Below the pieces are notes generated by a model. That model searched no databases, was not told where the DNA came from, and saw only the letters and a program-made list of their open reading frames with translations. The position numbers and the translations under genes are program-made. Positions 25,385-58,464 of a DNA stretch of 64,000 nucleotides are shown here, piece after piece. Each line of letters begins with the position of its first letter. The stretch's first letter is position 1. Origin of the DNA: Escherichia phage ECO71P1. Location of the stretch: the sequence record OP172789; one strand, given 5' to 3'.

Positions 25385-25927
25385 ATGAAAGCGAACAAAT
25401 TAAAGATTGTTTTGATCATCATCATGGCTATGCTGACAGTTATATTCTTCACCAAGACTGCATCGGCTGAAAATATGTTTGCGCCGCCGAATGGAAGTGC
25501 AAAAGTTTTGACAAGATATTTCAACAATGGGCAATCCTTTGAGTTCTGCTGGAGCAAATACGACGTAATAAAAGAAAGATTTGACAAAGAAAAGATGTGC
25601 GTAATGAATGATCGCGGTCGACAAGTCGTGTCGTTTGTGTTCGGAATGTCAATGGCAAAAGTTGATGCCCCTGAAATCGTTGTCAGGTATAATACATTGG
25701 ACAGCGGCCTTGTCGACAAGACATACCCTGTTGCAGTAGACAGCAGGACAGGCGGCGCACTAATACTCACTCCAGAAGATAAATCAGATGTCGTTAACAT
25801 GCTCATCAACAGCAAAGACGTAATCGTGTTTTATCACATTGAAGGCGTATCAGACTACCAAATGGCCTACTATCCACTGCCCTTGAGAGATGCTTCAGGT
25901 AATGTTAAGACACAGGAAGTGCGTTGA
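25385..25927 (+). CDS. secreted or periplasmic protein (signal peptide)
   Basis: KIVLIIIMAMLTVIFFTKTASA leader; 180 aa. Confidence 0.5.
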   Translation: MKANKLKIVLIIIMAMLTVIFFTKTASAENMFAPPNGSAKVLTRYFNNGQSFEFCWSKYDVIKERFDKEKMCVMNDRGRQVVSFVFGMSMAKVDAPEIVVRYNTLDSGLVDKTYPVAVDSRTGGALILTPEDKSDVVNMLINSKDVIVFYHIEGVSDYQMAYYPLPLRDASGNVKTQEVR

Positions 25928-25941
25928 CATGGGTGGTAGTT

Positions 25942-26154
25942 ATGCAGAAAGATTTGGAAGAAAACAAAAGGCTGAAAAAGGCTTTGACGTCTCAAATCTT
26001 ATCCCTGTTGGTAAAGCTTATTGGGGAGTCAATTAGCAGCAAGGTGGCACGGGCCGCGATTGTAGGCGTGATTGGCATGGCGGGGTATTACTTCGACTTG
26101 CCAGACATTGATACAAGTTCCGCTCCGCCCGTCCAAGTTGAAGCCGTAAAATAA
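25942..26154 (+). CDS. small single-TM membrane protein, holin candidate
   Basis: AAIVGVIGMAGYYF TM; start moved to ATG after GGGTGG (track used TTG at 25924). Confidence 0.3.
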   Translation: MQKDLEENKRLKKALTSQILSLLVKLIGESISSKVARAAIVGVIGMAGYYFDLPDIDTSSAPPVQVEAVK

Positions 26155-26179: not shown

Positions 26180-26824
26180 TTACATAACTGCTAATGCATC
26201 CTTGTAACGCTTTCTTCGCAACTCACCGTGGTTTGCTGCGTTCGGCGCGGCCCCGTTAATCCGCTTAACGGTTGAATCAAAATTACCTGCGTCAGCAAGA
26301 GGAATACATCCGCTATTCTTGAAGAACCATGCCGCGCTGTCTGCAATATATTTTGGTTCAGTCAGAATATCAGGGTTGTTCAATGCGTCATAGCCTGATT
26401 GGCGTGTATATTCCGCATAGTTTGCCTTGCCAGTCAGCTGAATGGCACCACGGCCACGGTACTTCCAACCGTCGCCAGATGCTACCGAACCGTTGCCCAT
26501 GCGGTTTGCATATGTATTATTGGCGATTTCCATAGGTTTACGTGCAATCGACAGGGCCAATGAGTTCGGGGCGCTTCCAGAACGACCGTTGACGCTGTAA
26601 CGACTAGGCCATGTATTGGCAAGACCTTGAGCAGAGTAGTTGAGATTTTCCACAAATGTTTTCAAGCTGCCTGTCTCCACTCCTACGTTTGCAAGGAATG
26701 CCGCGATGGCATTCTTGCTTTTGATTCCGTAGTGCTCACACGCCTGCTTGAAAGGGTCCACCCATTTCTCTGCGACATCCATGCTGCATCCGGTCCCTTT
26801 AGATATTACGTTTGCGTTAATCAT
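26180..26824 (-). CDS. endolysin, glycoside hydrolase family 19 (chitinase-like lysozyme)
   Basis: FLANVGVETG...GDGWKYRGRGAIQLTGKANY matches GH19 catalytic core. Confidence 0.75.
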   Translation of the reverse strand: MINANVISKGTGCSMDVAEKWVDPFKQACEHYGIKSKNAIAAFLANVGVETGSLKTFVENLNYSAQGLANTWPSRYSVNGRSGSAPNSLALSIARKPMEIANNTYANRMGNGSVASGDGWKYRGRGAIQLTGKANYAEYTRQSGYDALNNPDILTEPKYIADSAAWFFKNSGCIPLADAGNFDSTVKRINGAAPNAANHGELRRKRYKDALAVM

Positions 26825-26832
26825 AAATCACC

Positions 26833-28620
26833 TTATGCGCTTCTGTACCAGCCATTCAAAACAACGTATCGCGGCAAAGTCGCAACAGCCGTTGGCACCG
26901 ACTGCCCTGCGTTGCCAGTGTTACCGACCACATCGTGAGTGTGAGCGGGAAGGGTATAACTGTGGCTGTGATTGCCAGCGTAATTTATATTCAACCCATG
27001 GGTGTGTGATCCAGAAGATTGAATATTATGTACGTGATTGCCATTAGTTGAAGTGTTGTATTTGTAGTTATCCCAGTCGCCGCCTTTGCGACTTCCGAAG
27101 TTGTTGTGTGTCCCATCATAAACGCCGTACCGCGCATCACTAATATTGGATTCACCCCAGCTGCTGTCATGGTGGTGGTTGCCTGCCGTGCTCATTCCGT
27201 GCACGTGAGCGCCGTTTTGGCTGGTATCGCCTGTGTGGTTGTGGTTGCCTGCGTCTCCAGTGGTATTGGACCATGGACCGCTTTGTCGCGTGGTAATGTT
27301 CACGCTGTGATTGTGGAGAGGAAGCATAGCGGCGGTAAGAGTAACAGAGTCCGCGCCACCAGTGGCAAGACCGTTTCGTGCCGTGCCGGACGTGCGAATA
27401 ACCATGTTATCAGGCAGCCGTGTCCAAACCTGACCGTAAGCACCCAGCTTGGTATTTGGGTTGGTCCCGTTTGTCAAGAATCGAGTCTCACCTACTTCGA
27501 ATACATCACCCATAGTGATCAACTTCGCAGCCAAAGCATCGAGTTGGCGCTTTGTAACAAAATGTTGCGGCTCAGTAGCGTCAACGCCGATTTGCGCCGC
27601 GCCAAACGCCTGAAGGAGACGCCAAACAGTGCCGTCATAAATGATGGTGAATGGCAACAAGCCTACGATAGCGCCAGCTGGTAACTCGCCGCCGTCGAAT
27701 CCAAGAACGGCAACTTTGTTTACACCAATGGTCACGGTGACAGGTCCGGTAGTAGTCAAGTCATTGACGATTGTCAAACGACTACCCGCAGAAGGTGGCC
27801 ATGAATACCCTGCTGGAACGGTAAGGATTATATCTTGCGCTCCTTTACCAGATGCAAGGTTTGGAGTTCCGATTTGCACGTCTTGAACAGTGGCATTTTG
27901 AATCCAAGCACTCCAAGCACCAGAAGTGTAAGAGCGAGTAAACAAATAGCCATTCATTGATGTATATTGCTGCAGCGCAAACGTTTGTGCATCGACCTGC
28001 CAAGCGCAAACCTGAAGGCGACCTGCAACCTTCGTCGCGCCAACCGCATTCGGGATGTTAGAACACAGAGCGGCGACGGCATCGGACTGGATGACGATAG
28101 TTGTGGAAGTCGTAATATTATCGAAGTCCACAAAGCTTGAAATCAATCCGCGAACGAAGTACGGGTTTTGCGCATCGCCGCCAGCAGGCATTGGAATGTA
28201 TTTTCGCGCTTCGCTGGGCAGTGTTAATTCCTGCCAAGATTCCGTTTCTCCGTTGGCTGGCACGGCACTTGTGTTGCCGTCGACCACGCTTTGAAAAATG
28301 CGCCACTCAGGCGCTGAAGGCGTTCCAGAGTTGCTGACAACAATGGCGTTTTTCGGGTATCCATCCGGCTTCAAGTCAGAAGAGAAATATTGTTGAGCGC
28401 CATGATCTTGAATAAACATAAGGTTGTCTGTAATCAAATTCAGCAACCAGTTCATTGATTCGCGCTCAACAGCTTTCGCGGCGACGTTTCCGGCCTCCAG
28501 AGCAAGCGCATAGTCAGGAGTGTAGCCGCGCTGGAAGTTCACATAACCGCTTGGGCTTGCATCCGGCACCACGGATACATCACCGCTTTGCGCGAAAGGT
28601 CTGTTAATAAGTGTTGGCAT
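26833..28620 (-). CDS. tail fibre protein, T4 gp12-like, with His-rich HxH repeats in the C-terminal region
   Basis: VVPDAS N-terminal motif and GSRKGGDWDN plus HNH/HVH/HHH/HTH/HSH repeats; start trimmed to MPTLIN after GAGGAA. Confidence 0.6.
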   Translation of the reverse strand: MPTLINRPFAQSGDVSVVPDASPSGYVNFQRGYTPDYALALEAGNVAAKAVERESMNWLLNLITDNLMFIQDHGAQQYFSSDLKPDGYPKNAIVVSNSGTPSAPEWRIFQSVVDGNTSAVPANGETESWQELTLPSEARKYIPMPAGGDAQNPYFVRGLISSFVDFDNITTSTTIVIQSDAVAALCSNIPNAVGATKVAGRLQVCAWQVDAQTFALQQYTSMNGYLFTRSYTSGAWSAWIQNATVQDVQIGTPNLASGKGAQDIILTVPAGYSWPPSAGSRLTIVNDLTTTGPVTVTIGVNKVAVLGFDGGELPAGAIVGLLPFTIIYDGTVWRLLQAFGAAQIGVDATEPQHFVTKRQLDALAAKLITMGDVFEVGETRFLTNGTNPNTKLGAYGQVWTRLPDNMVIRTSGTARNGLATGGADSVTLTAAMLPLHNHSVNITTRQSGPWSNTTGDAGNHNHTGDTSQNGAHVHGMSTAGNHHHDSSWGESNISDARYGVYDGTHNNFGSRKGGDWDNYKYNTSTNGNHVHNIQSSGSHTHGLNINYAGNHSHSYTLPAHTHDVVGNTGNAGQSVPTAVATLPRYVVLNGWYRSA

Positions 28621-28630
28621 TGCCGTTCCT

Positions 28631-31369
28631 CTACACGATGTATTTAATTTTTGATAAAAGGGTTGATGCCCAATCACCAGTTAAGTCAGTTATATTCATG
28701 CTTGAAACATAACCACCAGCAGCACTTCTTGGAAAGTTTACTGTCGCTACAACATCCCCATTCGAAGCTATCAATTGAACTCCAGTAGCCAGTGACCCTG
28801 GGTTTTTGATGTATATAGAAGTTGCAGTTTTCTTTGCAAAATCTTCGCTTGTTGAAATAGCAAGCGCATTCATCGTATCACCAGACACAAGCATCAAGCT
28901 TAAAATGTCAAGTTCAAGAGTTGTGCCAACTTCGGTCGGCAAGTCTTTCCCTGATATCAAGCCAATACTGATTCCACCTGTCGACCCGTCCCAAGTCGCT
29001 CCTTCAACAATCTCAGCGGCAAGGTCAATTTCGATACGCTGCAAATCGCCTACGCCTATGTTGTAGAATTTAGGAATATAGCCGCCCATCCCATCCGGTA
29101 CAGTCACAAAAAGTTTTTGACCGTTAACCGTGTTGTTTTTGACTATTGCGATAAACGACAAAGGGCCAGTCAGGGTGCCAGTGTATTTAGTGGCCAGTAC
29201 GGCGCGTGCATAACCGGATGCTGGCACAGTCCCTATTGTAGCGGAAAGCTTGAATGATGGGAACTGGTTGGGAACACCGCTGATTGGCGTTGCCGTTACC
29301 GTGTTAGCTCCGTCCTTGACGATATTGCCAAAAGATGTGCCGTCATTGGGCTGTGTGTATCGCCAGTAGTTTGTGATTGCGGCACGTGGGATTTCACGAC
29401 CAAAGTCATCTCTTGATGCTTTTGAGATTGAATAATCGTTGACAAGTGCGCCGTCGATGACTTGGTTTACACCTTTCAAAGATTCAAGCTGTCTTATGAC
29501 ACCGTTAAAGTTGTTCAACGGCCACTCGTTAATGCCGCCAACTCTGATTATCCCGTCAGTGTTAATCCATGCAACACCTTCCGTTTCAAATCCGATTCTG
29601 GTGTCTGTGATGTCGCTTACTGTCAAGTCAATATCTGAAAGGTCTGCTTCTTCCTGGTAAAGTTGCCAACGTATCCCAGCGTTTGCTGGCAAGAATCCTT
29701 CACTCCTGTCGCCAACTAGCGTCTTAAAGTTATCAGACAAGTTGTTGGCAAAATAAGGCCCGATGACATATTCCATGTAATAGGCAGCGGTCGGCGGCGG
29801 CGGTACTCCGTCCAATCGGCTAACGTTCCATGAGCGTCTGATGCCGTCTGTTTCTGCGATCAGAGTGGCGTTGCCTGGGTACGGATAGCCGCCGATTGAA
29901 CCAGAGTACGCAAGCGATGAGCCAGGCTGCATGAATGACTCGCCTACCACGCCATCTCTTGTTGTCAACGGCCCGTTCGCGCAAGAGATGTTGTTGAGCG
30001 TTCCTGCCGTAACAGACAAGATTGCCGTTCCATCTGCAGGAGGATTTTGAGTCCCATAGAAATAAGGCTCAGGCCCATTAGGATTCTGAACAGGGTCGCA
30101 AACGCAAATGGAGTATCCAAAAAGAAGTGCATCAGACCCTTCAGGCAATTCGCGAGTCTGGGTTGATCCAGCGGCAGTTGCTTTCAACTCAATTGAAAAG
30201 CTTGTTTTCACCCCAGCTGTCGCGTTTGCAGTTTGCTCTACAATCCAGATTCTGTACCAATCGCCGCCGATGGCCTTGATGCCACCACGGCTTGATTCCC
30301 TTCTCACACCGTCGAACTTTCCTGTGATGAAATAACTCAAAGAAGGGTCAAGGTTGAATTGACCAGTAACTGGGTCGAAAAGCTTGCCATTACTCGATGC
30401 ATCACTGTTCTCTGTTACGGAAACAGAAGCCACGTTTTCAGAAAGCACTTTTATGTAGAAGCTATAGCAAACGTTGACACCAGCCTGAGAAGGAAGCGCA
30501 ATAGATTGGGCGCTTGGATTATTGGCCAAAGAATACACAGGCTCGCCGCTGGAAGCGGTCTTGATGACCCGTACTGCGTTGGCGAAATTCTCTATGGCCT
30601 CTCCTGGGTAATCACCGCACAGTTGGCCGTAATAGTCAGGGCCGCCATATTGTCGTGTATCACCGCCGACAATGCCAGCGTCGGAACCATTGCCCCATGA
30701 ATACCAGTCTGGGTGTGCCATTCGCGAAACGGTCCCTGCCACCCCACTTATGGTAAGTCCTGCGTTGTTGCCGTGACTCAAAAGAACTTGTTTATAATCG
30801 TGCTGAATCTCAGTTGACCCCTGCCAGTCGTACAGAAGGAATGAACCGTTTGTTGATTCAGAAGAAGACACTGCGCCTTGAGTATTGTCTGTCACGTATG
30901 CGTAGCGCGATGAAGAGTAATCCCAATCTTCTCCACGGTTAAAAATCCACTTAAGCATACGGTTGATGCTTTCTATGCGGCCATCGCTTGTGAGCGTCAA
31001 ATAACGAAGCTTAAGAAGGATTCGCGCTTCTTCAATGTTTTTCACAACCTTTCCGCCAGCACCAAAGAAGTTGCCGCCGATGTTGTCCGGCCCTTCGAAG
31101 TTGTCGCGTGTGGGTCCAAATGCCCAGTTGTGCTCATAGTTGCTTAAGTCAACAAAATCCCTTGGTATGCATAGGATGTCACACCAAATATAGATGCCCA
31201 TTGCATCGCAAGTATCAATGTTGAATATGTTTTTGTACCAGTCAATCCAAAACTGATCTTGATATCGCTCATACCAGTCACTTTTCTTTTGAACCAAAGA
31301 TGTGATGTTTGGCGCGTTGTTCTGCATCCACTTAAGGTTTTGCAACAGGTTTGTGTCAAACTTTTGCAT
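28631..31369 (-). CDS. large tail fibre or baseplate wedge structural protein
   Basis: 912 aa Gly/Ser/Thr/Asn-rich protein between baseplate genes and fibre; GAGGAA RBS. Confidence 0.5.
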   Translation of the reverse strand: MQKFDTNLLQNLKWMQNNAPNITSLVQKKSDWYERYQDQFWIDWYKNIFNIDTCDAMGIYIWCDILCIPRDFVDLSNYEHNWAFGPTRDNFEGPDNIGGNFFGAGGKVVKNIEEARILLKLRYLTLTSDGRIESINRMLKWIFNRGEDWDYSSSRYAYVTDNTQGAVSSSESTNGSFLLYDWQGSTEIQHDYKQVLLSHGNNAGLTISGVAGTVSRMAHPDWYSWGNGSDAGIVGGDTRQYGGPDYYGQLCGDYPGEAIENFANAVRVIKTASSGEPVYSLANNPSAQSIALPSQAGVNVCYSFYIKVLSENVASVSVTENSDASSNGKLFDPVTGQFNLDPSLSYFITGKFDGVRRESSRGGIKAIGGDWYRIWIVEQTANATAGVKTSFSIELKATAAGSTQTRELPEGSDALLFGYSICVCDPVQNPNGPEPYFYGTQNPPADGTAILSVTAGTLNNISCANGPLTTRDGVVGESFMQPGSSLAYSGSIGGYPYPGNATLIAETDGIRRSWNVSRLDGVPPPPTAAYYMEYVIGPYFANNLSDNFKTLVGDRSEGFLPANAGIRWQLYQEEADLSDIDLTVSDITDTRIGFETEGVAWINTDGIIRVGGINEWPLNNFNGVIRQLESLKGVNQVIDGALVNDYSISKASRDDFGREIPRAAITNYWRYTQPNDGTSFGNIVKDGANTVTATPISGVPNQFPSFKLSATIGTVPASGYARAVLATKYTGTLTGPLSFIAIVKNNTVNGQKLFVTVPDGMGGYIPKFYNIGVGDLQRIEIDLAAEIVEGATWDGSTGGISIGLISGKDLPTEVGTTLELDILSLMLVSGDTMNALAISTSEDFAKKTATSIYIKNPGSLATGVQLIASNGDVVATVNFPRSAAGGYVSSMNITDLTGDWASTLLSKIKYIV

Positions 31370-50080: not shown

Positions 50081-52456
50081 TCAACCTTGCTTCGGTGAAT
50101 TAGTAGGATTATTGAGTGCTCCGTATGCTTGAGAGCAATCACCCTTCAACCACTCCTTGAATGAGTTCACATCTAATTCGTGGATTGAGTCGAATCCATT
50201 CCAACCGTTACCAAATGATGCTTGATAAGCTTCTTTCGCTTCTTCTGCTGAATCGAATCCAAGCATACACTTGTGTTCATCAAACTCGCCAGAGTAGTTA
50301 TCGTTTTGGTTCACGATAAAGACTTTCGGCGACTTCAGATTTGGACCCACAAAGCAGTCTACTTCATCACCGTCTGCACCCTTGGTGCCCTTGATGAATC
50401 CGTAGTGGTGCGGCATCTTCACGGCCCATTCACCGTCAAGGCTGTTTCCTCTACGAATGCTGTTGCGCGGATTCTCAATGCCAAGAATCATTCCGTGCAA
50501 CTTCATCTTAGGTAATGATGCTGCGTCCATTTTACCAACGTTGTGGCGTAAGTTGACGACGTGTCCTTTAACGCTTGGAAGGGTAGACGGTTGCACCGAC
50601 CGTGAATCTTTTTGAGGGTCAAAATCCACATCCTGACCTTCTTTCAGGTAGTAATCCGCAATACCCTCCAGACCTTCTTTCAACTGCGTTAGGACATCAA
50701 CCTGATGGCTTGATTCATCATCGGTGTCGTCCATGTTGATTTCGACAGGTGCTCTGTCAGGGTTTTCTGCCAACTCACCACGCGCGGCACCCTCTGGCAT
50801 AATACCTGTTTCGCTATAGAACTGGCCGCCCATCTTGACAACATCAGCTTTCGCCTGTTCAATATCGGCCTTACCTTGCAGGACTTCACCAGCAGACTTG
50901 CCAAGCAATGCCATATTCTCTGGAGACATCCCTGGGGTTTCTTCTGCTGCGTCTTCCGGCAGACGGTTGTAGCCGCTGTTTTTGTCGTCTTTGATGCGGT
51001 CGCGCTCTTCATCAGGAGAAATGACGCCAGCATCAATAAGAGTTTTGCCAGTGTTGGCTCGCTTATCATTGATTTCTGCAAGTTGAGTAGCAGTAAGTGA
51101 GCCAACTGGTTCCCATGCAACCTTAACATCGACATCCACCCCTTCTGATTTGAGAAGGATTTTGTAATGGCGGTCGAGAATTTTTGTCAGGTCATGCTGC
51201 TGGCACGTTTCCAACTCTTCGTGATAGCTGACCATCTCGAATTCACCAGTAGCGTTAAAGCCTTTCGGCGAAGTCCCAAGTAGTTTGGTTGACGGAACTT
51301 TTGCGATTGCGGCCACCAGCTGGTACTGGTTCATGATGATGCTGTCGAAGTCTGACAAGTTGATGTCGAACTGGTCCATCTCTTCTTTTTGGCCAAGCAC
51401 TTTGACTGCATAGTTATCGCGGTACTTGATCCACATCATCAGACGTTCTGCAAAAGACCGCTCATTGGCAATCGCCTTGTCAACGTCGGTCCGCAGCGTG
51501 GTTGTACGCTTGGACATCGCCAGCAATGGCGCTTCGTTAGCGGTACGTTCAGCGGCATAGATGCGTTCATAAATCTGCTGAGTCAGAGGAATGCCGCCGT
51601 AAATATAAGTTGGCTTGAGAATATCAGCTGGCTCATCATTGCGCAAGATGATGAGGTGACTGCGATGATAACGTTGTCCGCTGATCACCCAGTATTCTGG
51701 ATCATAGAAGTGCTGTGATGCAGGGTCGGCGGTGTTTTCAGACGTTAAAAATGGCATCATCCAATAAGGGTCAACCTGAATGATTCCCTTATAAGACCCC
51801 TTTGTCACACCATCAATGTTAAAAGGCTTGCTGTAATATTCTGGATCATCGCTACGCACATCAAATATGATGACGCGGATACCAAAAATATTTTTGAATC
51901 GTTCGGCTTCAACTAAGTGCTCTTTGATATTAAATTCTTTATCAATTTGCTTTAGGCGTTCGCTTGCCTGCACTGACAATTCTGACTCAGAACTGGATTT
52001 GACTTCCCAACCTTTACGGACCGCATCGCGTCCTACCATGGAACACGCCTTGTTCACCAGCCAATGCTGTGCGATGATGGCACAAGCTTGATAGCCGATG
52101 AATGACTGTGACAAATACCAGTTTTGAAGTTGAATAGGTACTGTGTATGGGTTGACCTGCCCTTCTGAACTGATGTTCTTCAAGGCATTATCCATGACTT
52201 TTTTGGATACTGTTGCGGAATCGACTGAACGGCCTTTTATGATAGCAACACCGTCGCCATTAATATCAGGCTCATATAAAGGGAAGTCATCAACCGTTTT
52301 AAAGGTCGGTCGATTGCTTTCAGTCTTTTCCCAGCGTTGACCGCTGCCGCGCCTTTCAAGGCGTTCAAACGGTGCCAATGGGTCGCCTGGCGGCATCTCC
52401 GCTGGTTCGGCTTCTGGTTGCGTCTTCTCCCAGAGTTTTATGCCAAGAATTTTCAT
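50081..52456 (-). CDS. portal protein with C-terminal extension domain
   Basis: About 790 aa, between terminase and head morphogenesis genes; AGGTGG RBS before MKILGIK. Confidence 0.55.
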   Translation of the reverse strand: MKILGIKLWEKTQPEAEPAEMPPGDPLAPFERLERRGSGQRWEKTESNRPTFKTVDDFPLYEPDINGDGVAIIKGRSVDSATVSKKVMDNALKNISSEGQVNPYTVPIQLQNWYLSQSFIGYQACAIIAQHWLVNKACSMVGRDAVRKGWEVKSSSESELSVQASERLKQIDKEFNIKEHLVEAERFKNIFGIRVIIFDVRSDDPEYYSKPFNIDGVTKGSYKGIIQVDPYWMMPFLTSENTADPASQHFYDPEYWVISGQRYHRSHLIILRNDEPADILKPTYIYGGIPLTQQIYERIYAAERTANEAPLLAMSKRTTTLRTDVDKAIANERSFAERLMMWIKYRDNYAVKVLGQKEEMDQFDINLSDFDSIIMNQYQLVAAIAKVPSTKLLGTSPKGFNATGEFEMVSYHEELETCQQHDLTKILDRHYKILLKSEGVDVDVKVAWEPVGSLTATQLAEINDKRANTGKTLIDAGVISPDEERDRIKDDKNSGYNRLPEDAAEETPGMSPENMALLGKSAGEVLQGKADIEQAKADVVKMGGQFYSETGIMPEGAARGELAENPDRAPVEINMDDTDDESSHQVDVLTQLKEGLEGIADYYLKEGQDVDFDPQKDSRSVQPSTLPSVKGHVVNLRHNVGKMDAASLPKMKLHGMILGIENPRNSIRRGNSLDGEWAVKMPHHYGFIKGTKGADGDEVDCFVGPNLKSPKVFIVNQNDNYSGEFDEHKCMLGFDSAEEAKEAYQASFGNGWNGFDSIHELDVNSFKEWLKGDCSQAYGALNNPTNSPKQG

Positions 52457-52618
52457 TGTTAACGCCACCTGACAGTGAAAGGGAATCAATCTATATTATA
52501 AATATTCATGTGTTTGTAAGCAAATGATATGTATGGTGATCATAAATAGTTCATAAAATATTTTGCTTTTGTATCATTTTGAGTTATATTTTAGTTAACC
52601 AAACGAAAGGAGATTGAA

Positions 52619-56148: not shown

Positions 56149-58464
56149 ATGCCAAGGCTAATATTCAAAAACAACTTTGAGGTCGCGCTGGCTCAACCAA
56201 CGACGACTTCAGACACCACAATCACAATTCGCTCAGGGTCGGGCTTTCCGACCTTGGGCGCAAACGAGCGTGTAGTGGCGACAATCGTCGATGCTGCAAC
56301 AGGCCTCCAATTCGAAATCGTCACAGTAACAGCCGTTGTTGGAAACGTCCTGACCGTGCAGCGTGCACAAGAAGGAACTGCAGCGCGTGCGTGGTCGGCT
56401 GGTGACATGCTTTCCATTCGAACTACTGCTGCGACACTGACAAATTCTTTTCGAAACTTCGGGGAAATTCCTAGCGGAATAAATCTTAATGCTTTGACTG
56501 GCACTTGGTTTGGCATATATTATCAAACTCAAGATTCAAACGCATCAACGACTCTAAATTACCCCATTGCAGTTGGTGGATCACTTGAGGTGTTTACAAG
56601 TGGTGCAGGGCAAGAAGGTTGCATCCAAGTTTATAAAGTAAGGAACTCGGCCAGGTCTTATACCAGGACTTACAATCCACAATCAGGATGGACTAGTTGG
56701 AATTCATACAGGATGACTGATGACACCGTGCCTATTCAATTTGGCGGAACGGGGCAAACCACAATTCAGGGAATGAAAACAGCTTTTGGATTCGGAACGG
56801 TTGCTGATCAGAACATCGTTCCAACTTCAATGGGCGGCACCGGATCAGGGGATAATGCTCAGGCTTGGCTAAACATCCGTCCACAAGGATCAACACCGCT
56901 GGCTGGTGACCCAGTAAACGATTATGATGCCGCGACTAAGCGTTGGGTTGAGAACTTGGTGAATACAGGCACCGTTGGTCCAAGTATGAACGGTGTTATG
57001 AACTATGGCGTCGGTGATTTCCACTTACGGGACAGCCGTGCTTATATTCAACCTTATGAAGTCGTTTCTGACGGACAATTGTTAAATCGTGCAGACTGGC
57101 CTGAGCTTTGGGCTTATGCGCAAATGCTTACCCCTATTGCTGATGCTGACTGGCTTGCCGATGCATCCAAGCGCGGCAAATATTCTTTGGGCAACGGAAC
57201 GACAACATTCCGCGTGCCAGACCGTAACGGCGTCCAAGCAGGGTCCATTCCTGGCCTATTTGGTCGAGGTGATGGTGGAGTGTCTTCTTTTGACGGTCGC
57301 GTAAGACAAAACGCAGCGCCAAACATAACCGGTTCAGTTGGCACTTCAATATCAACGCAATATAACACGGCAGGTAACACAGGGACAGGGGCAATAGTTC
57401 CAGCACCTGTTGTTATTCCAGGCCTAAGAGTTGGTCCAGAAGGAGGTACAACAAGCCTTAACTATAGGAACGGATTGAACATTGATGCAAGCCTTTCCAA
57501 TGCTGCTTATGGTCGAGATGGCTCCGCAGAGGTTCGACCTAATGCTTTTGAAGGCGTTTGGGTGATTCGTGCATCTGGTGGATTTGTCGCGGCGAATACG
57601 CAGTGGAGTGTAATTACTGGTGACTCATCCCGTCCATCAACAGGGGTGACAACGGATGGCGGTGAAATAATTTCAAGATACAATATTGGAACGGCACAGG
57701 AAGCCCAAATGAGCTGGCGCGTTCGCGCTTTAATTGGAGGTACATATTATGCTCGCCTTAATGTGTCAAACGCCACAAAAGGCACAACTACTGTATTTGA
57801 TTTTGATGATACTGGTGCAATGGCTGCTCCTGGCCCAATTTCTGCTGGTGCTGCTGGTTCAAATTTCAAAAGCACAATAGAAGTAAATAATGTCTCTTAT
57901 CCAGGACTTTTGTTCAAGCCTACGTACACCAATGGAAACGTGATACCTGATACTGTTGTTGGAGGGAATACATTCTTTGAGTGCTCATTCATCCAGGGGC
58001 AGATATCAGGTGTTCAATTGTATCGTAGGAGGAAAGACGGAAATGCCACAGGACAAATAGCGATTTCCTTCCCGACTACTGCCGGAACGATTGCGCTTCA
58101 AGGTACATCAGGCATTGAATATAAAAAGGACGTTGTAGATGCAGATGCCAAGGAAGCGATGGATAGAATCAATTCACAGCGCCTTGTCAATTTCGTTTAT
58201 AAGGATGATGAGCAAGAGCGTGTGAGATTTGGTATAATCGCTGAAGAAGCGGAATTGATTGCGCCACAATATATCAAGCACAATCAAGAAAACATTTCTG
58301 ACATTCTTGATGAAGAAGGAAACAAGATAGGTGAAGAGACTCGTGACAGACCTTCAGTTGACACAAACCCAATCGTCATGGACTTGATGGGCTGTGTGCA
58401 GTATCTCAATAAGCAAATTGAAGATTTGAAGGCAGAGATAGCCGCGCTAAAGGCAGCAAAATAA
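56149..58464 (+). CDS. tail fibre/spike protein with C-terminal intramolecular chaperone (S74-like) domain
   Basis: C-terminal GTSGIEYKKDVVDADAKEAMDRINS...IEDLKAEIAALKAAK typical of auto-cleaving chaperone. Confidence 0.6.
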   Translation: MPRLIFKNNFEVALAQPTTTSDTTITIRSGSGFPTLGANERVVATIVDAATGLQFEIVTVTAVVGNVLTVQRAQEGTAARAWSAGDMLSIRTTAATLTNSFRNFGEIPSGINLNALTGTWFGIYYQTQDSNASTTLNYPIAVGGSLEVFTSGAGQEGCIQVYKVRNSARSYTRTYNPQSGWTSWNSYRMTDDTVPIQFGGTGQTTIQGMKTAFGFGTVADQNIVPTSMGGTGSGDNAQAWLNIRPQGSTPLAGDPVNDYDAATKRWVENLVNTGTVGPSMNGVMNYGVGDFHLRDSRAYIQPYEVVSDGQLLNRADWPELWAYAQMLTPIADADWLADASKRGKYSLGNGTTTFRVPDRNGVQAGSIPGLFGRGDGGVSSFDGRVRQNAAPNITGSVGTSISTQYNTAGNTGTGAIVPAPVVIPGLRVGPEGGTTSLNYRNGLNIDASLSNAAYGRDGSAEVRPNAFEGVWVIRASGGFVAANTQWSVITGDSSRPSTGVTTDGGEIISRYNIGTAQEAQMSWRVRALIGGTYYARLNVSNATKGTTTVFDFDDTGAMAAPGPISAGAAGSNFKSTIEVNNVSYPGLLFKPTYTNGNVIPDTVVGGNTFFECSFIQGQISGVQLYRRRKDGNATGQIAISFPTTAGTIALQGTSGIEYKKDVVDADAKEAMDRINSQRLVNFVYKDDEQERVRFGIIAEEAELIAPQYIKHNQENISDILDEEGNKIGEETRDRPSVDTNPIVMDLMGCVQYLNKQIEDLKAEIAALKAAK

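Follow-up and report, generated by a model that had tools for sequence, protein, structure and literature searches.

What kind of tail fibre is encoded at this locus, and do the His-x-His (HxH) motifs clustered near its C-terminus form a metal-stabilised receptor-binding tip? An earlier note, made from the DNA letters, had proposed such a tip and compared it to the fibre tips of phage T4. We compared the protein with fibres of known structure, with its orthologues, and with the wider family to which its C-terminus belongs.

The gene and its surroundings

Judged from its nucleotide identity of 87-95% to published genomes, the window (the whole 64-kb stretch of DNA analysed here) is the genome sequence of a Wifcevirus myophage of E. 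coli. The fibre CDS itself matches 28 Wifcevirus phage records at 87-95% nucleotide identity with a coverage of at least 80%; these records label the orthologous CDS variously as tail fiber, tail protein or hypothetical. The features first needed are the following:

26833..28620, minus strand: tail-fibre CDS, complete (595 aa plus the stop codon at 26833-26835)
27505..28617, minus strand: baseplate-attachment and proximal shaft region, aa 2-372, by homology to the Pbunavirus gp47 tail fibre
28626..28631, minus strand: ribosome-binding site GAGGAA, read directly from the sequence, 6 nt upstream of the ATG
28631..31369, minus strand: baseplate wedge-2 protein of 912 aa, the upstream gene; matches Pa193 gp46 and Pfam DUF2612

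The ORF, with its ATG start codon at 28620, has exactly the limits given in the earlier note. The ribosome-binding site overlaps the TAG stop of the wedge-2 gene and is annotated at the same site in the Mansfield record. The fibre gene comes after two baseplate wedge genes (a Baseplate_J wedge, then wedge-2) and is followed by an endolysin gene, and it has the same neighbours in Bas99, Bas100 and Mansfield. Sequence and synteny therefore agree in making the protein an orthologue of the conserved Wifcevirus tail fibre. Beside it we noticed no chaperone gene resembling gp38 or gp57A; in the case of gp38 this is a difference from T4 gp37. The second fibre of the phage, T-shaped and highly variable, is encoded elsewhere in the window (56149-58464).

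Residues 2-372 match residues 4-368 of Pa193 gp47 (PDB 9b45 chain 2; phmmer E 2e-31), so that the N-terminal ca. 370 residues are homologous to the fibres of Pa193, a Pseudomonas phage, and E217 (Pbunavirus). The order of wedge-1 (Baseplate_J) and wedge-2 is shared with Pa193 as well, and the N-terminus of wedge-2 (aa 4-185) matches Pa193 gp46, "Baseplate wedge 2" (9b45; E 1e-42), and also E217 gp45. Unlike the present fibre, Pa193 gp47 has 962 aa, and its distal two thirds have no similarity to the HxH tip. With this match, the PHROG tail families (phrog_5717 tail protein, E 3e-176) and the wedge-gene neighbours, the designation as a tail fibre in the earlier note is well founded.

The histidine motifs

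Eight HxH motifs occur in the protein, in the context G-x-H-x-H that is also found in T4 gp37. They lie four and four on two segments that would, after gp37, be the strands of a needle:

27169..27315, minus strand: ascending needle strand, aa 436-484, with HNH at aa 436 (27307-27315), HNH at aa 460 (27235-27243), HVH at aa 472 (27199-27207) and HHH at aa 482 (27169-27177)
26935..27036, minus strand: descending needle strand, aa 529-562, with HVH at aa 529 (27028-27036), HTH at aa 539 (26998-27006), HSH at aa 551 (26962-26970) and HTH at aa 560 (26935-26943)

The last 160 residues contain all eight, and with them 18 of the 20 histidines of the protein. The C-terminal clustering that had first drawn attention to the gene is thus real; the count of at least seven motifs in the last 120 residues is not, since that stretch contains five. 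The cluster is far above chance: 20,000 shuffles of the whole protein gave a mean of 0.64 motifs and a maximum of 5, and when the His-rich last 170 residues alone were shuffled (mean 1.8) eight motifs were reached in a fraction of 5e-5. Elsewhere in the window, no ORF of at least 100 aa has more than two. With 33,387 cluster representatives, the family to which the tip belongs is very large. Eight motifs are not an unusual density within it, as the best 150 representatives have a median of 9 HxH (range 3-21).

A tip of the T4 gp37 type

Profile homology identifies residues 368-595 as a receptor-binding tip of the T4 gp37 type. An alignment of the wider C-terminal family (A1), whose 23 distant members also served to assess the HxH columns, was the source of the family profile. 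Against the PDB this profile matched 2XGF with E 1.1e-23 over chain positions 17-239 of 242, that is, over collar, needle and head. A control profile, from which the window sequence and the gp37-like family member P0024 had been left out, found the C-terminus of the window protein at E 8e-40 and the gp37 tip at E 2e-12 (PDB scale), and pairwise BLASTP of the tip against gp37 gave E 3e-6. The wider family is needed for this link because gp37 was missed both by full-length phmmer against the PDB, where 9b45 was the sole match and 2XGF was absent, and, at PDB scale, by a profile from the Wifcevirus orthologues only. Single-sequence phmmer of the fibre against gp37 was likewise not significant at PDB scale and lost its significance after bias correction; the composition of the tip is biased (His, Gly, Ser, Thr, Asn).

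In the profile-anchored alignment, the motifs at aa 436, 472, 482, 529, 539, 551 and 560 correspond one-to-one to gp37 H883, H915, H929, H966, H980, H989 and H998. The motif at aa 460-462 is extra, gp37 having FDYG at this place, so that this protein has eight motifs and gp37 seven. In the crystal structure of gp37 its seven motifs are reported to coordinate seven Fe ions (PMC12609058, PMC6116203, PMC11705849). By homology, the tip follows the domain order of gp37 (2XGF), with a putative collar in two parts, one at either end, needle strands that run out and back, and a head where the chain turns:

27316..27519, minus strand: N-terminal half of the collar, aa 368-435, from the A1 alignment; it ends with TLTAAMLPL just before the first HxH
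27037..27168, minus strand: gp12-type head domain at the chain reversal, aa 485-528, from BLASTP, shuffles, hhalign and the head profile
26836..26934, minus strand: C-terminal half of the collar, aa 563-595 (…LPRYVVLNGWYRSA), aligned with the C-terminal strand of T4 gp10

The head of gp37 is, in contrast, unrelated to that of this fibre. The two proteins also differ in what carries the tip, which here sits directly on a 370-aa proximal fibre of the Pbunavirus type, whereas that of gp37 ends a four-protein, 1026-aa distal half-fibre.

The putative collar has relatives beyond gp37. Residues 563-595 can be aligned both to the family consensus PPYxTVYxWRRTA and to T4 gp10, at its C-terminal strand (…IQPYITVYRWIRIA), and the family profiles match both halves of the gp10 C-terminal domain as well as the gp37 collar. 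Most family homologues carry PF21939 or PF07484. On the fibre protein itself the Pfam families Collar, Gp10_C and S_tail_recep_bd all stayed below threshold, and nothing else rose above it in searches with the full protein and the C-terminus (DUF6059 and PF14928 were at noise level). An AF2 monomer of aa 368-595, made from a 23-sequence alignment, had a mean pLDDT of 53, with 78-86 at the start of the aa 368-435 segment, about 88 at the C-terminus, and values below 50 throughout needle and head, which makes it unusable as a judge of histidine geometry. Foldseek of this model against the PDB returned T4 gp10 matches only, none of them significant (E at least 0.58). The axial placement of the histidines is accordingly a prediction from homology.

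The head and its relation to T4 gp12

The segment GSRKGGDWDN (aa 509-518, nt 27067-27096) lies in the head. Its likeness to gp12, which the earlier note had pointed out, was confirmed by BLASTP of aa 482-523 against gp12 445-484 (39% identity over 44 aa, E 7e-4), by a Smith-Waterman score of the head against gp12 that none of 2000 shuffles reached, by hhalign of the head alignment (E 3.6e-5), and by a 44-residue head profile that in the whole PDB matched gp12 chains alone (E 2.7e-4 to 5.7e-4). These comparisons establish a sequence relationship of the head, together with H482/H484, to T4 gp12 445-485, around the axial metal site of gp12. Here H482 and H484 align with the ligands H445 and H447, which in gp12 coordinate an axial metal (PMC3004832); the Zn of gp12 may be a purification artefact (PMC6116203).

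The relationship is confined to the head and becomes visible with a head-specific alignment (A2) only. With the whole-tip alignment A1, hhalign against gp12 found only a 24-column collar match at 3% probability, and PF14928 on the fibre protein gave E 0.93 and 10.3 bits (cut-off 23.8) over aa 481-530 only. What is shared with T4 gp12 (1OCY, 1PDI, 5IV5) is the metal-binding HxH and the motif G[ST]RKGxDWDN; gp12 itself has a single HxH without a long needle, and the rest of its head is unmatched here. The analogy with T4-type fibre tips therefore stands for the gp12-like head segment, but the scaffold with its many HxH is that of the long fibre protein gp37. As a whole, the tip gives the impression of a collar and needle of the gp37 type that end in a head of the gp12 type.

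Conservation and head alleles in Wifcevirus

A search for homologous proteins with the C-terminus brought up distant relatives only (at most 39% identity) and no near-identical Wifcevirus proteins. The orthologue set was therefore a separate one, of 10 Wifcevirus proteins from the phage collection. Their amino acid identity is 95.5-98.5% at a dS of 0.2-0.7, and the overall dN/dS is 0.03-0.09. All eight HxH are kept in all 10, the 16 predicted liganding histidines being invariant, and two phages have Tyr in place of the central His of HHH (aa 483).

Variation is concentrated in the head, with 36% variable columns among the 10 orthologues compared to 1-15% elsewhere; aa 1-130 have a single variable column. 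Two deeply diverged head alleles exist, one with GGDWDN and the other with -TDYDN or -SDYDN, and dS between them is saturated. Compared to ECML-117, dS is mosaic: 0.08-0.14 in aa 1-367 and about 2 in the ascending needle and head. The dN/dS of the head is below 0.1 wherever it is measurable. Heads evidently move between needles, because P0024 pairs a near-T4 gp37 needle with a gp12-type head.

The published orthologue and other relatives

The tip feature is real but ordinary, and already known from a 95%-identical protein. Humolli et al. (2025, PLoS Biol) described for the ManiWeber orthologue a gp37-like tip with conserved HxH, reported an AF3 trimer (ipTM 0.64) with His6 metal sites on the three-fold axis, and suggested for this conserved fibre "a more mechanical role" (PMC11990801). 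The gp12-type head of this fibre and the count of eight motifs are not mentioned in that paper. We infer that its "Gp32" is Bas99_0031 (XPK42359.1), as GenBank numbers this gene 0031 and gives 0032 to the endolysin, and as the protein sequence was not found in the BASEL supplements. The ManiWeber/Bas99 protein has the same locus between wedge-2 and endolysin, a length of 594-595 aa, and the same eight HxH at 95.5% amino acid identity. The differences are allelic only, the head of the window protein being of the GGDWDN class and that of ManiWeber of the -TDYDN class.

By description, the fibres of the Felixounavirus Bas63 are alike too: cryo-EM found the same tip of collar, needle and head, the long and short tail fibres have gp37-type tips with 6-7 di-histidine motifs, and one of these motifs carries an additional His close to the head (HHxH), which recalls the HHH of the present fibre (PMC12609058). 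The N-terminal parts and the phage lineage differ. According to the Mansfield record, the orthologue is similar to Felix O1 p44 by BLASTp.

Proposed structure and mechanism

Taken together, the protein is very likely, on the homologies described, a conserved Wifcevirus tail fibre with a Pa193-type proximal part, a gp37-type metal-holding needle tip and a gp12-related head. The fibre is almost certainly a homotrimer. In Pa193, loop 80-113 of gp46 binds the gp47 fibre, and gp47 has three "beads" in the matching region (PMC11456595). By analogy, wedge-2 is the probable docking partner, on which residues 1 to ca. 370 would dock with an N-terminal anchor that continues into a beaded shaft.

If the gp37 structure is followed further, the chain would leave the collar along a thin needle, turn in the head (aa 485-528) and return to complete the collar. 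The needle would consist of two strands from each of three chains, because the chain runs out and back. Each G-x-H-x-H would aim two imidazoles at the three-fold axis, and three chains would form an octahedral His6 site; in gp37 seven such sites are reported to hold Fe(II) (PMC12609058, PMC6116203, PMC11705849). With four motifs on the ascending strand and four on the descending one, a fibre is therefore predicted to bury as many as eight metal ions (ca. 8 per trimer, 2.7 per chain). Fe(II) is the probable metal, with Zn(II) as a possible alternative. The ions may set the register in which the trimer folds, and may stiffen the needle by stapling its strands together. The metal-stabilised receptor-binding tip put forward in the earlier note accordingly finds support in homology, from the control profile and from the seven motifs that fall on the Fe-binding seven of gp37. 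With less confidence, we regard the head as the surface that contacts a conserved surface glycan such as LPS, in which case the conserved fibre would be the invariant partner of the variable T-shaped one.

A closely related possibility, which we consider open to serious argument though short of probable, is that the fibre acts like a short tail fibre: through its gp12-type head it would attach to the conserved core of LPS and so lock the baseplate for good, whereas the first contact, specific for the O-antigen, would be left to the T-shaped fibre. The proposal is one about role rather than structure, and fits with the structure favoured above. It agrees with the homology to gp12 445-485, with the very high identity across the genus (95.5-98.5%) despite a dS of 0.2-0.7, with the shortness of the fibre (595 aa versus 962 aa in Pa193 gp47), and with the mechanical role suggested by the BASEL authors (PMC11990801). 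However, the match to the gp12 head extends over no more than about 40 residues, PF14928 remains at 10.3 bits versus 23.8, the N-terminus is homologous to a single lateral Pbunavirus fibre and not to a folded-under short fibre, and Wifcevirus isolates are totally dependent on the O16 O-antigen (PMC11990801). Phages isolated on one K-12 O16 host carry both head allele classes (Bas100 versus Bas99), the dN/dS of the head is low, and its divergence is small compared to the receptor-binding domains of the second fibre (PMC11990801); it is therefore unlikely that the head is a host-range cassette, i.e. that the fibre, far from being an invariant element, is an ordinary receptor-binding protein that determines specificity and swaps its tip by recombination, even if the variability of the head (36% of columns, 1% in the N-terminus), its two alleles with a mosaic dS against ECML-117, and the composite tip of P0024 would suit such a role.

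Other readings dispense with the structural metal or give it another task. The biased composition, and the loss of significance of single-sequence gp37 searches after bias correction, could mean that the HxH cluster holds no metal and is a polar or low-complexity repeat packing by hydrogen bonds, or an artefact of composition. This is very improbable: among the 10 orthologues neither histidine changes in any of the eight motifs, whereas the x position and His483 do, the HxH columns are invariant or nearly so in the 23 distant members, and the solved trimeric HxH fibres and spikes discussed in PMC6116203 (gp37, R-pyocin, P2 gpV, the phi92 spike, gp12) all hold axial metal. Hardly credible at all is a "Ferrojan horse", in which the iron of the tip is bait for a siderophore receptor of the host. 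The hypothesis has been published for HxH-bearing fibres (PMC11705849), but the metal of gp37-type needles is buried on the axis and not exposed (PMC6116203, PMC12609058), and Wifcevirus isolates need the O16 O-antigen, no siderophore receptor having been reported for them (PMC11990801).

Significance

The analysis adds little to what was known, although the reading of the raw sequence did catch a genuine, predicted metal-binding fibre tip. It refines the published description of the fibre, in that the tip is mosaic, has eight motifs, seven of them in gp37 register, and carries a gp12-type head. Fast replication and the ability to attack O157 and ESBL E. coli give the Wifcevirus phages some applied interest. 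Head swaps to retarget the fibre, and also studies of metal-assisted trimer folding with HxH mutants, would profit from known limits of collar, needle and head. A tentative and rather doubtful extension, not spelled out in print, is that of a hybrid tip in which an eight-site gp37-type needle bears a gp12-type head as an exchangeable cassette, present in Wifcevirus as two diverged alleles. If true, the "invariant, mechanical" fibre would in reality serve the phage as a second receptor-binding protein, with the LPS core as its probable target, and its specificity module would recombine independently of the needle.

Genomic setting of the fibre gene

The window is a near-complete genome of a Wifcevirus, a group of E. 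coli and Shigella myophages of about 68 kb. The tail fibre is encoded at 26833-28620 on the minus strand, exactly where the earlier note had placed it, by an ORF of 595 amino acids (aa) that starts with ATG behind a GAGGAA ribosome-binding site. This site and the stop codon of the preceding gene overlap, and a longer ORF from a GTG, to 28677, would intrude on that gene. Full-length matches at 87-95% nucleotide identity are found in 28 phage records, including AV128, Mansfield, ECML-117, WFH, and the BASEL phages Bas98-101, and are variously annotated as tail fiber, tail protein, or hypothetical protein. The records that were compared all show one gene order: baseplate hub; spike; Baseplate_J wedge; 912-aa protein; fibre; and GH19 endolysin. 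The features referred to here are:

25385-26154, plus strand: two small convergent ORFs past the endolysin
26180-26824, minus strand: GH19-type endolysin, directly after the fibre gene
28631-31369, minus strand: baseplate wedge-2 homologue, 912 aa (Pa193 gp46 / E217 gp45; Pfam DUF2612), annotated 'hypothetical protein'
56149-58464, plus strand: second fibre, 771 aa (phrog_6921), with a Peptidase_S74 intramolecular chaperone at aa 656-707

No gene for a chaperone resembling gp38, gp57A or Tfa was noticed adjoining the fibre gene; chaperones of these types are needed for the folding of T4 gp37. In the 802-aa portal or minor head protein elsewhere in the window (50081-52489, minus strand), a C-terminal domain spanning some 125 aa (aa 660-790) is shared with polyvalent proteins of very large size from phages (DarB-like, 'endolysin', and unknown PHROGs).

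Humolli et al. (2025, PLoS Biol) characterised four Wifcevirus isolates with two fibres per phage, one of them variable and T-shaped; its RBD1 is gp12-like, and its RBD2, which has an intramolecular chaperone, is T5-like (PMC11990801). The second fibre of the window, far from the tail locus and on the opposite strand to it, corresponds to this T-shaped dual-RBD fibre, Gp114 of phage ManiWeber (Bas99). The other ManiWeber fibre, Gp32, is described there with a gp37-like tip carrying conserved HxH motifs, is highly conserved genus-wide, was suggested to have 'a more mechanical role', and was modelled as a trimer by AF3 with an ipTM of 0.64 (PMC11990801). In GenBank the ManiWeber orthologue of our fibre gene is Bas99_0031, followed by the endolysin (0032). 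Being the only HxH-rich ORF, positioned in the tail locus and highly conserved, Bas99_0031 is almost certainly the published Gp32; the fibre sequence was not found in the supplements of PMC11990801.

Probable attachment to the baseplate

The proximal part of the fibre (aa 2-372) is similar to residues 4-368 of the Pbunavirus Pa193 tail fibre gp47 (PDB 9b45, E 2e-31), which in the virion form three trimeric 'beads'; a loop of gp46, the baseplate wedge-2 protein, is the docking site of the first bead (PMC11456595). The 912-aa protein encoded immediately upstream of the fibre matches gp46 over only its first ca. 185 aa (E 1e-42); its Pseudomonas homologues have about 500 aa in all, whereas here there is a C-terminal extension of some 720 aa, which could be a further surface-exposed baseplate module. 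Since the fibre N-terminus and the upstream wedge-2 are both homologous to their Pa193 counterparts, the fibre very likely attaches to the baseplate as in that phage. Over its aa 1-130, ten orthologues show next to no variation.

Histidine motifs and the gp37-type tip

The fibre carries eight HxH motifs, starting at aa 436, 460, 472, 482 (HHH), 529, 539, 551, and 560, and 18 of its 20 histidines lie within the last 160 residues. In 20,000 shuffles of the whole protein the mean was 0.64 motifs and the maximum five, and shuffles of the His-rich C-terminus alone reached eight in 5e-5 of trials; none of the window's other ORFs of at least 100 aa has more than two. The HxH-rich C-terminus noticed earlier is thus confirmed far above the shuffles, although the density claimed, at least seven motifs in the last 120 residues, was too high: five lie there, and it takes the last 160 to include all eight.

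Pfam gave no match on the fibre protein, and in PHROGs its C-terminus groups with tail-collar and tail-fibre families. A database search with the tip (aa 368-595) returned 34 distant relatives, most with Pfam Gp10_C or Collar domains. This search, word-indexed and covering 5.8 billion proteins, found no close Wifcevirus orthologue (best match 39% identity), which is not to be read as novelty, as the phage collection holds 28 near-identical genes. The whole-tip family alignment of 23 sequences has a common plan: a conserved segment at the N-terminus, whose last residues are G-G-x-x-x-T-L-x-x-x-x-L/M-P-x-H-x-H; G-x-H-x-H repeats in variable number; a hypervariable centre; further G-x-H-x-H repeats; and a conserved C-terminal strand ending in P-x-Y-x-x-x-x-x-W-x-R-T-A.

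The family profile matches the T4 gp37 receptor-binding tip (2XGF) over the whole construct (E 1.1e-23), and its match to the C-terminal domain of T4 gp10 is limited to two collar segments. As the alignment includes P0024, a database protein that is itself a close gp37 relative, the test was repeated without P0024 and the window sequence; this profile still found the window C-terminus (E 8e-40) and gp37 (E 2e-12, PDB-scaled). Neither the window sequence alone nor a profile of Wifcevirus orthologues only reached gp37 significantly, so the link depends on intermediate sequences, and the region is compositionally biased. In the profile-anchored alignment the motifs at 436, 472, 482, 529, 539, 551, and 560 fall on gp37 883, 915, 929, 966, 980, 989, and 998, and the local context G-x-H-x-H is identical in both proteins. 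The eighth motif (460-462) is extra compared to T4 gp37, which has FDYG there. Published accounts of the gp37 crystal structure report that these seven di-histidine motifs coordinate seven Fe ions, lined up along the axis of the needle (PMC12609058, PMC6116203, PMC11705849). In gp37-type tips the chain reverses its course at the head, and a six-stranded needle results (PMC12609058); the arrangement of four plus four motifs around a 44-residue centre agrees with this topology. The scaffold with its multiple HxH motifs is therefore assigned by profile homology to the gp37 type, and we infer that the histidines would cluster on the fibre axis. A single-chain AF2 model of aa 368-595 had a mean pLDDT of 53; confidence was high in the collar segments only, needle and head scored below 50, and a Foldseek search with it gave T4 gp10 matches only, none significant. 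The metal-stabilised receptor-binding tip proposed earlier is supported, as a prediction through homology.

The head and its resemblance to gp12

The head (aa 485-528) has no significant similarity to that of gp37. Its alignment with T4 gp12 445-485 spans 44 residues with 39% identity (pairwise E 7e-4), and the alignment score was reached by none of 2000 shuffles, and by one in 2000 when the HxH was removed. With hhalign, a head alignment of seven sequences matches gp12 with E 3.6e-5, and the three matches of the head profile among all PDB sequences are all gp12 (1PDI, 1OCY, 5IV5; E 2.7e-4 to 5.7e-4). H482 and H484 align with gp12 His445 and His447, which coordinate a metal on the three-fold axis (PMC3004832), Zn in crystals and possibly a purification artefact (PMC6116203). 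The Pfam gp12 receptor-binding model scores 10.3 bits on the fibre, far below its cut-off of 23.8, and the whole-tip profile finds nothing in gp12 beyond a weak collar match. The gp12 likeness first seen in the GSRKGGDWDN segment, indeed present at aa 509-518, accordingly holds for the head but not for the multi-HxH scaffold.

Variation and spread of the tip

All eight motifs are kept in ten orthologues with both outer histidines invariant; the x position differs between phages, with Tyr in place of the central histidine of HHH in ECML-117 and RCIP0319. The orthologues share 95.5-98.5% aa identity (dS 0.2-0.7; dN/dS 0.03-0.09), and variable columns make up 36% of the head, 1% of the anchor, and 6-15% of the other segments. 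Two head allele classes, saturated in their synonymous divergence, are found: GGDWDN (window, AV128, Mansfield, Bas100); and -TDYDN/-SDYDN (Bas99, WFH, CWP003, ECML-117, SP13, RCIP0319). Compared to ECML-117, dS is 0.08-0.14 over aa 1-367, 0.66 in the collar, about 2 in ascending needle and head, then 0.27 and 0.08, a mosaic profile that points to recombination of the tip (aa 368-562; window 26935-27519, minus strand). As both classes occur in phages isolated on one K-12 O16 host, head class does not obviously determine host range.

When 1.84 billion cluster representatives were scanned in full by HMMER, the family profile matched 33,387 proteins at E ≤ 1e-3, of which 16,086 also passed E ≤ 1e-10. 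The best 150 representatives, a sample that favours long needles, carry 3-21 HxH motifs (median 9; 65% with at least eight), and eight per tip is clearly not exceptional in the family. The gp12-type head also occurs in the members P0024, P0099, and P0130. P0024 (372 aa; Phage_tail_fib N-terminus and Collar domain) joins a needle that is nearly that of T4 gp37, ending in NIAFNYIVRLA, to a gp12-type head (HNHDSGWGE...DWDN), which shows directly that heads are swapped between gp37-type needles. In the Felixounavirus Bas63 both fibres have the same tip architecture by cryo-EM (PMC12609058). The HxH tip is already described for the orthologue (PMC11990801) and belongs to a very large and well understood family, and our additions are modest: seven motifs in gp37 register plus one extra; a head of gp12 type; and a mosaic tip with two alleles.
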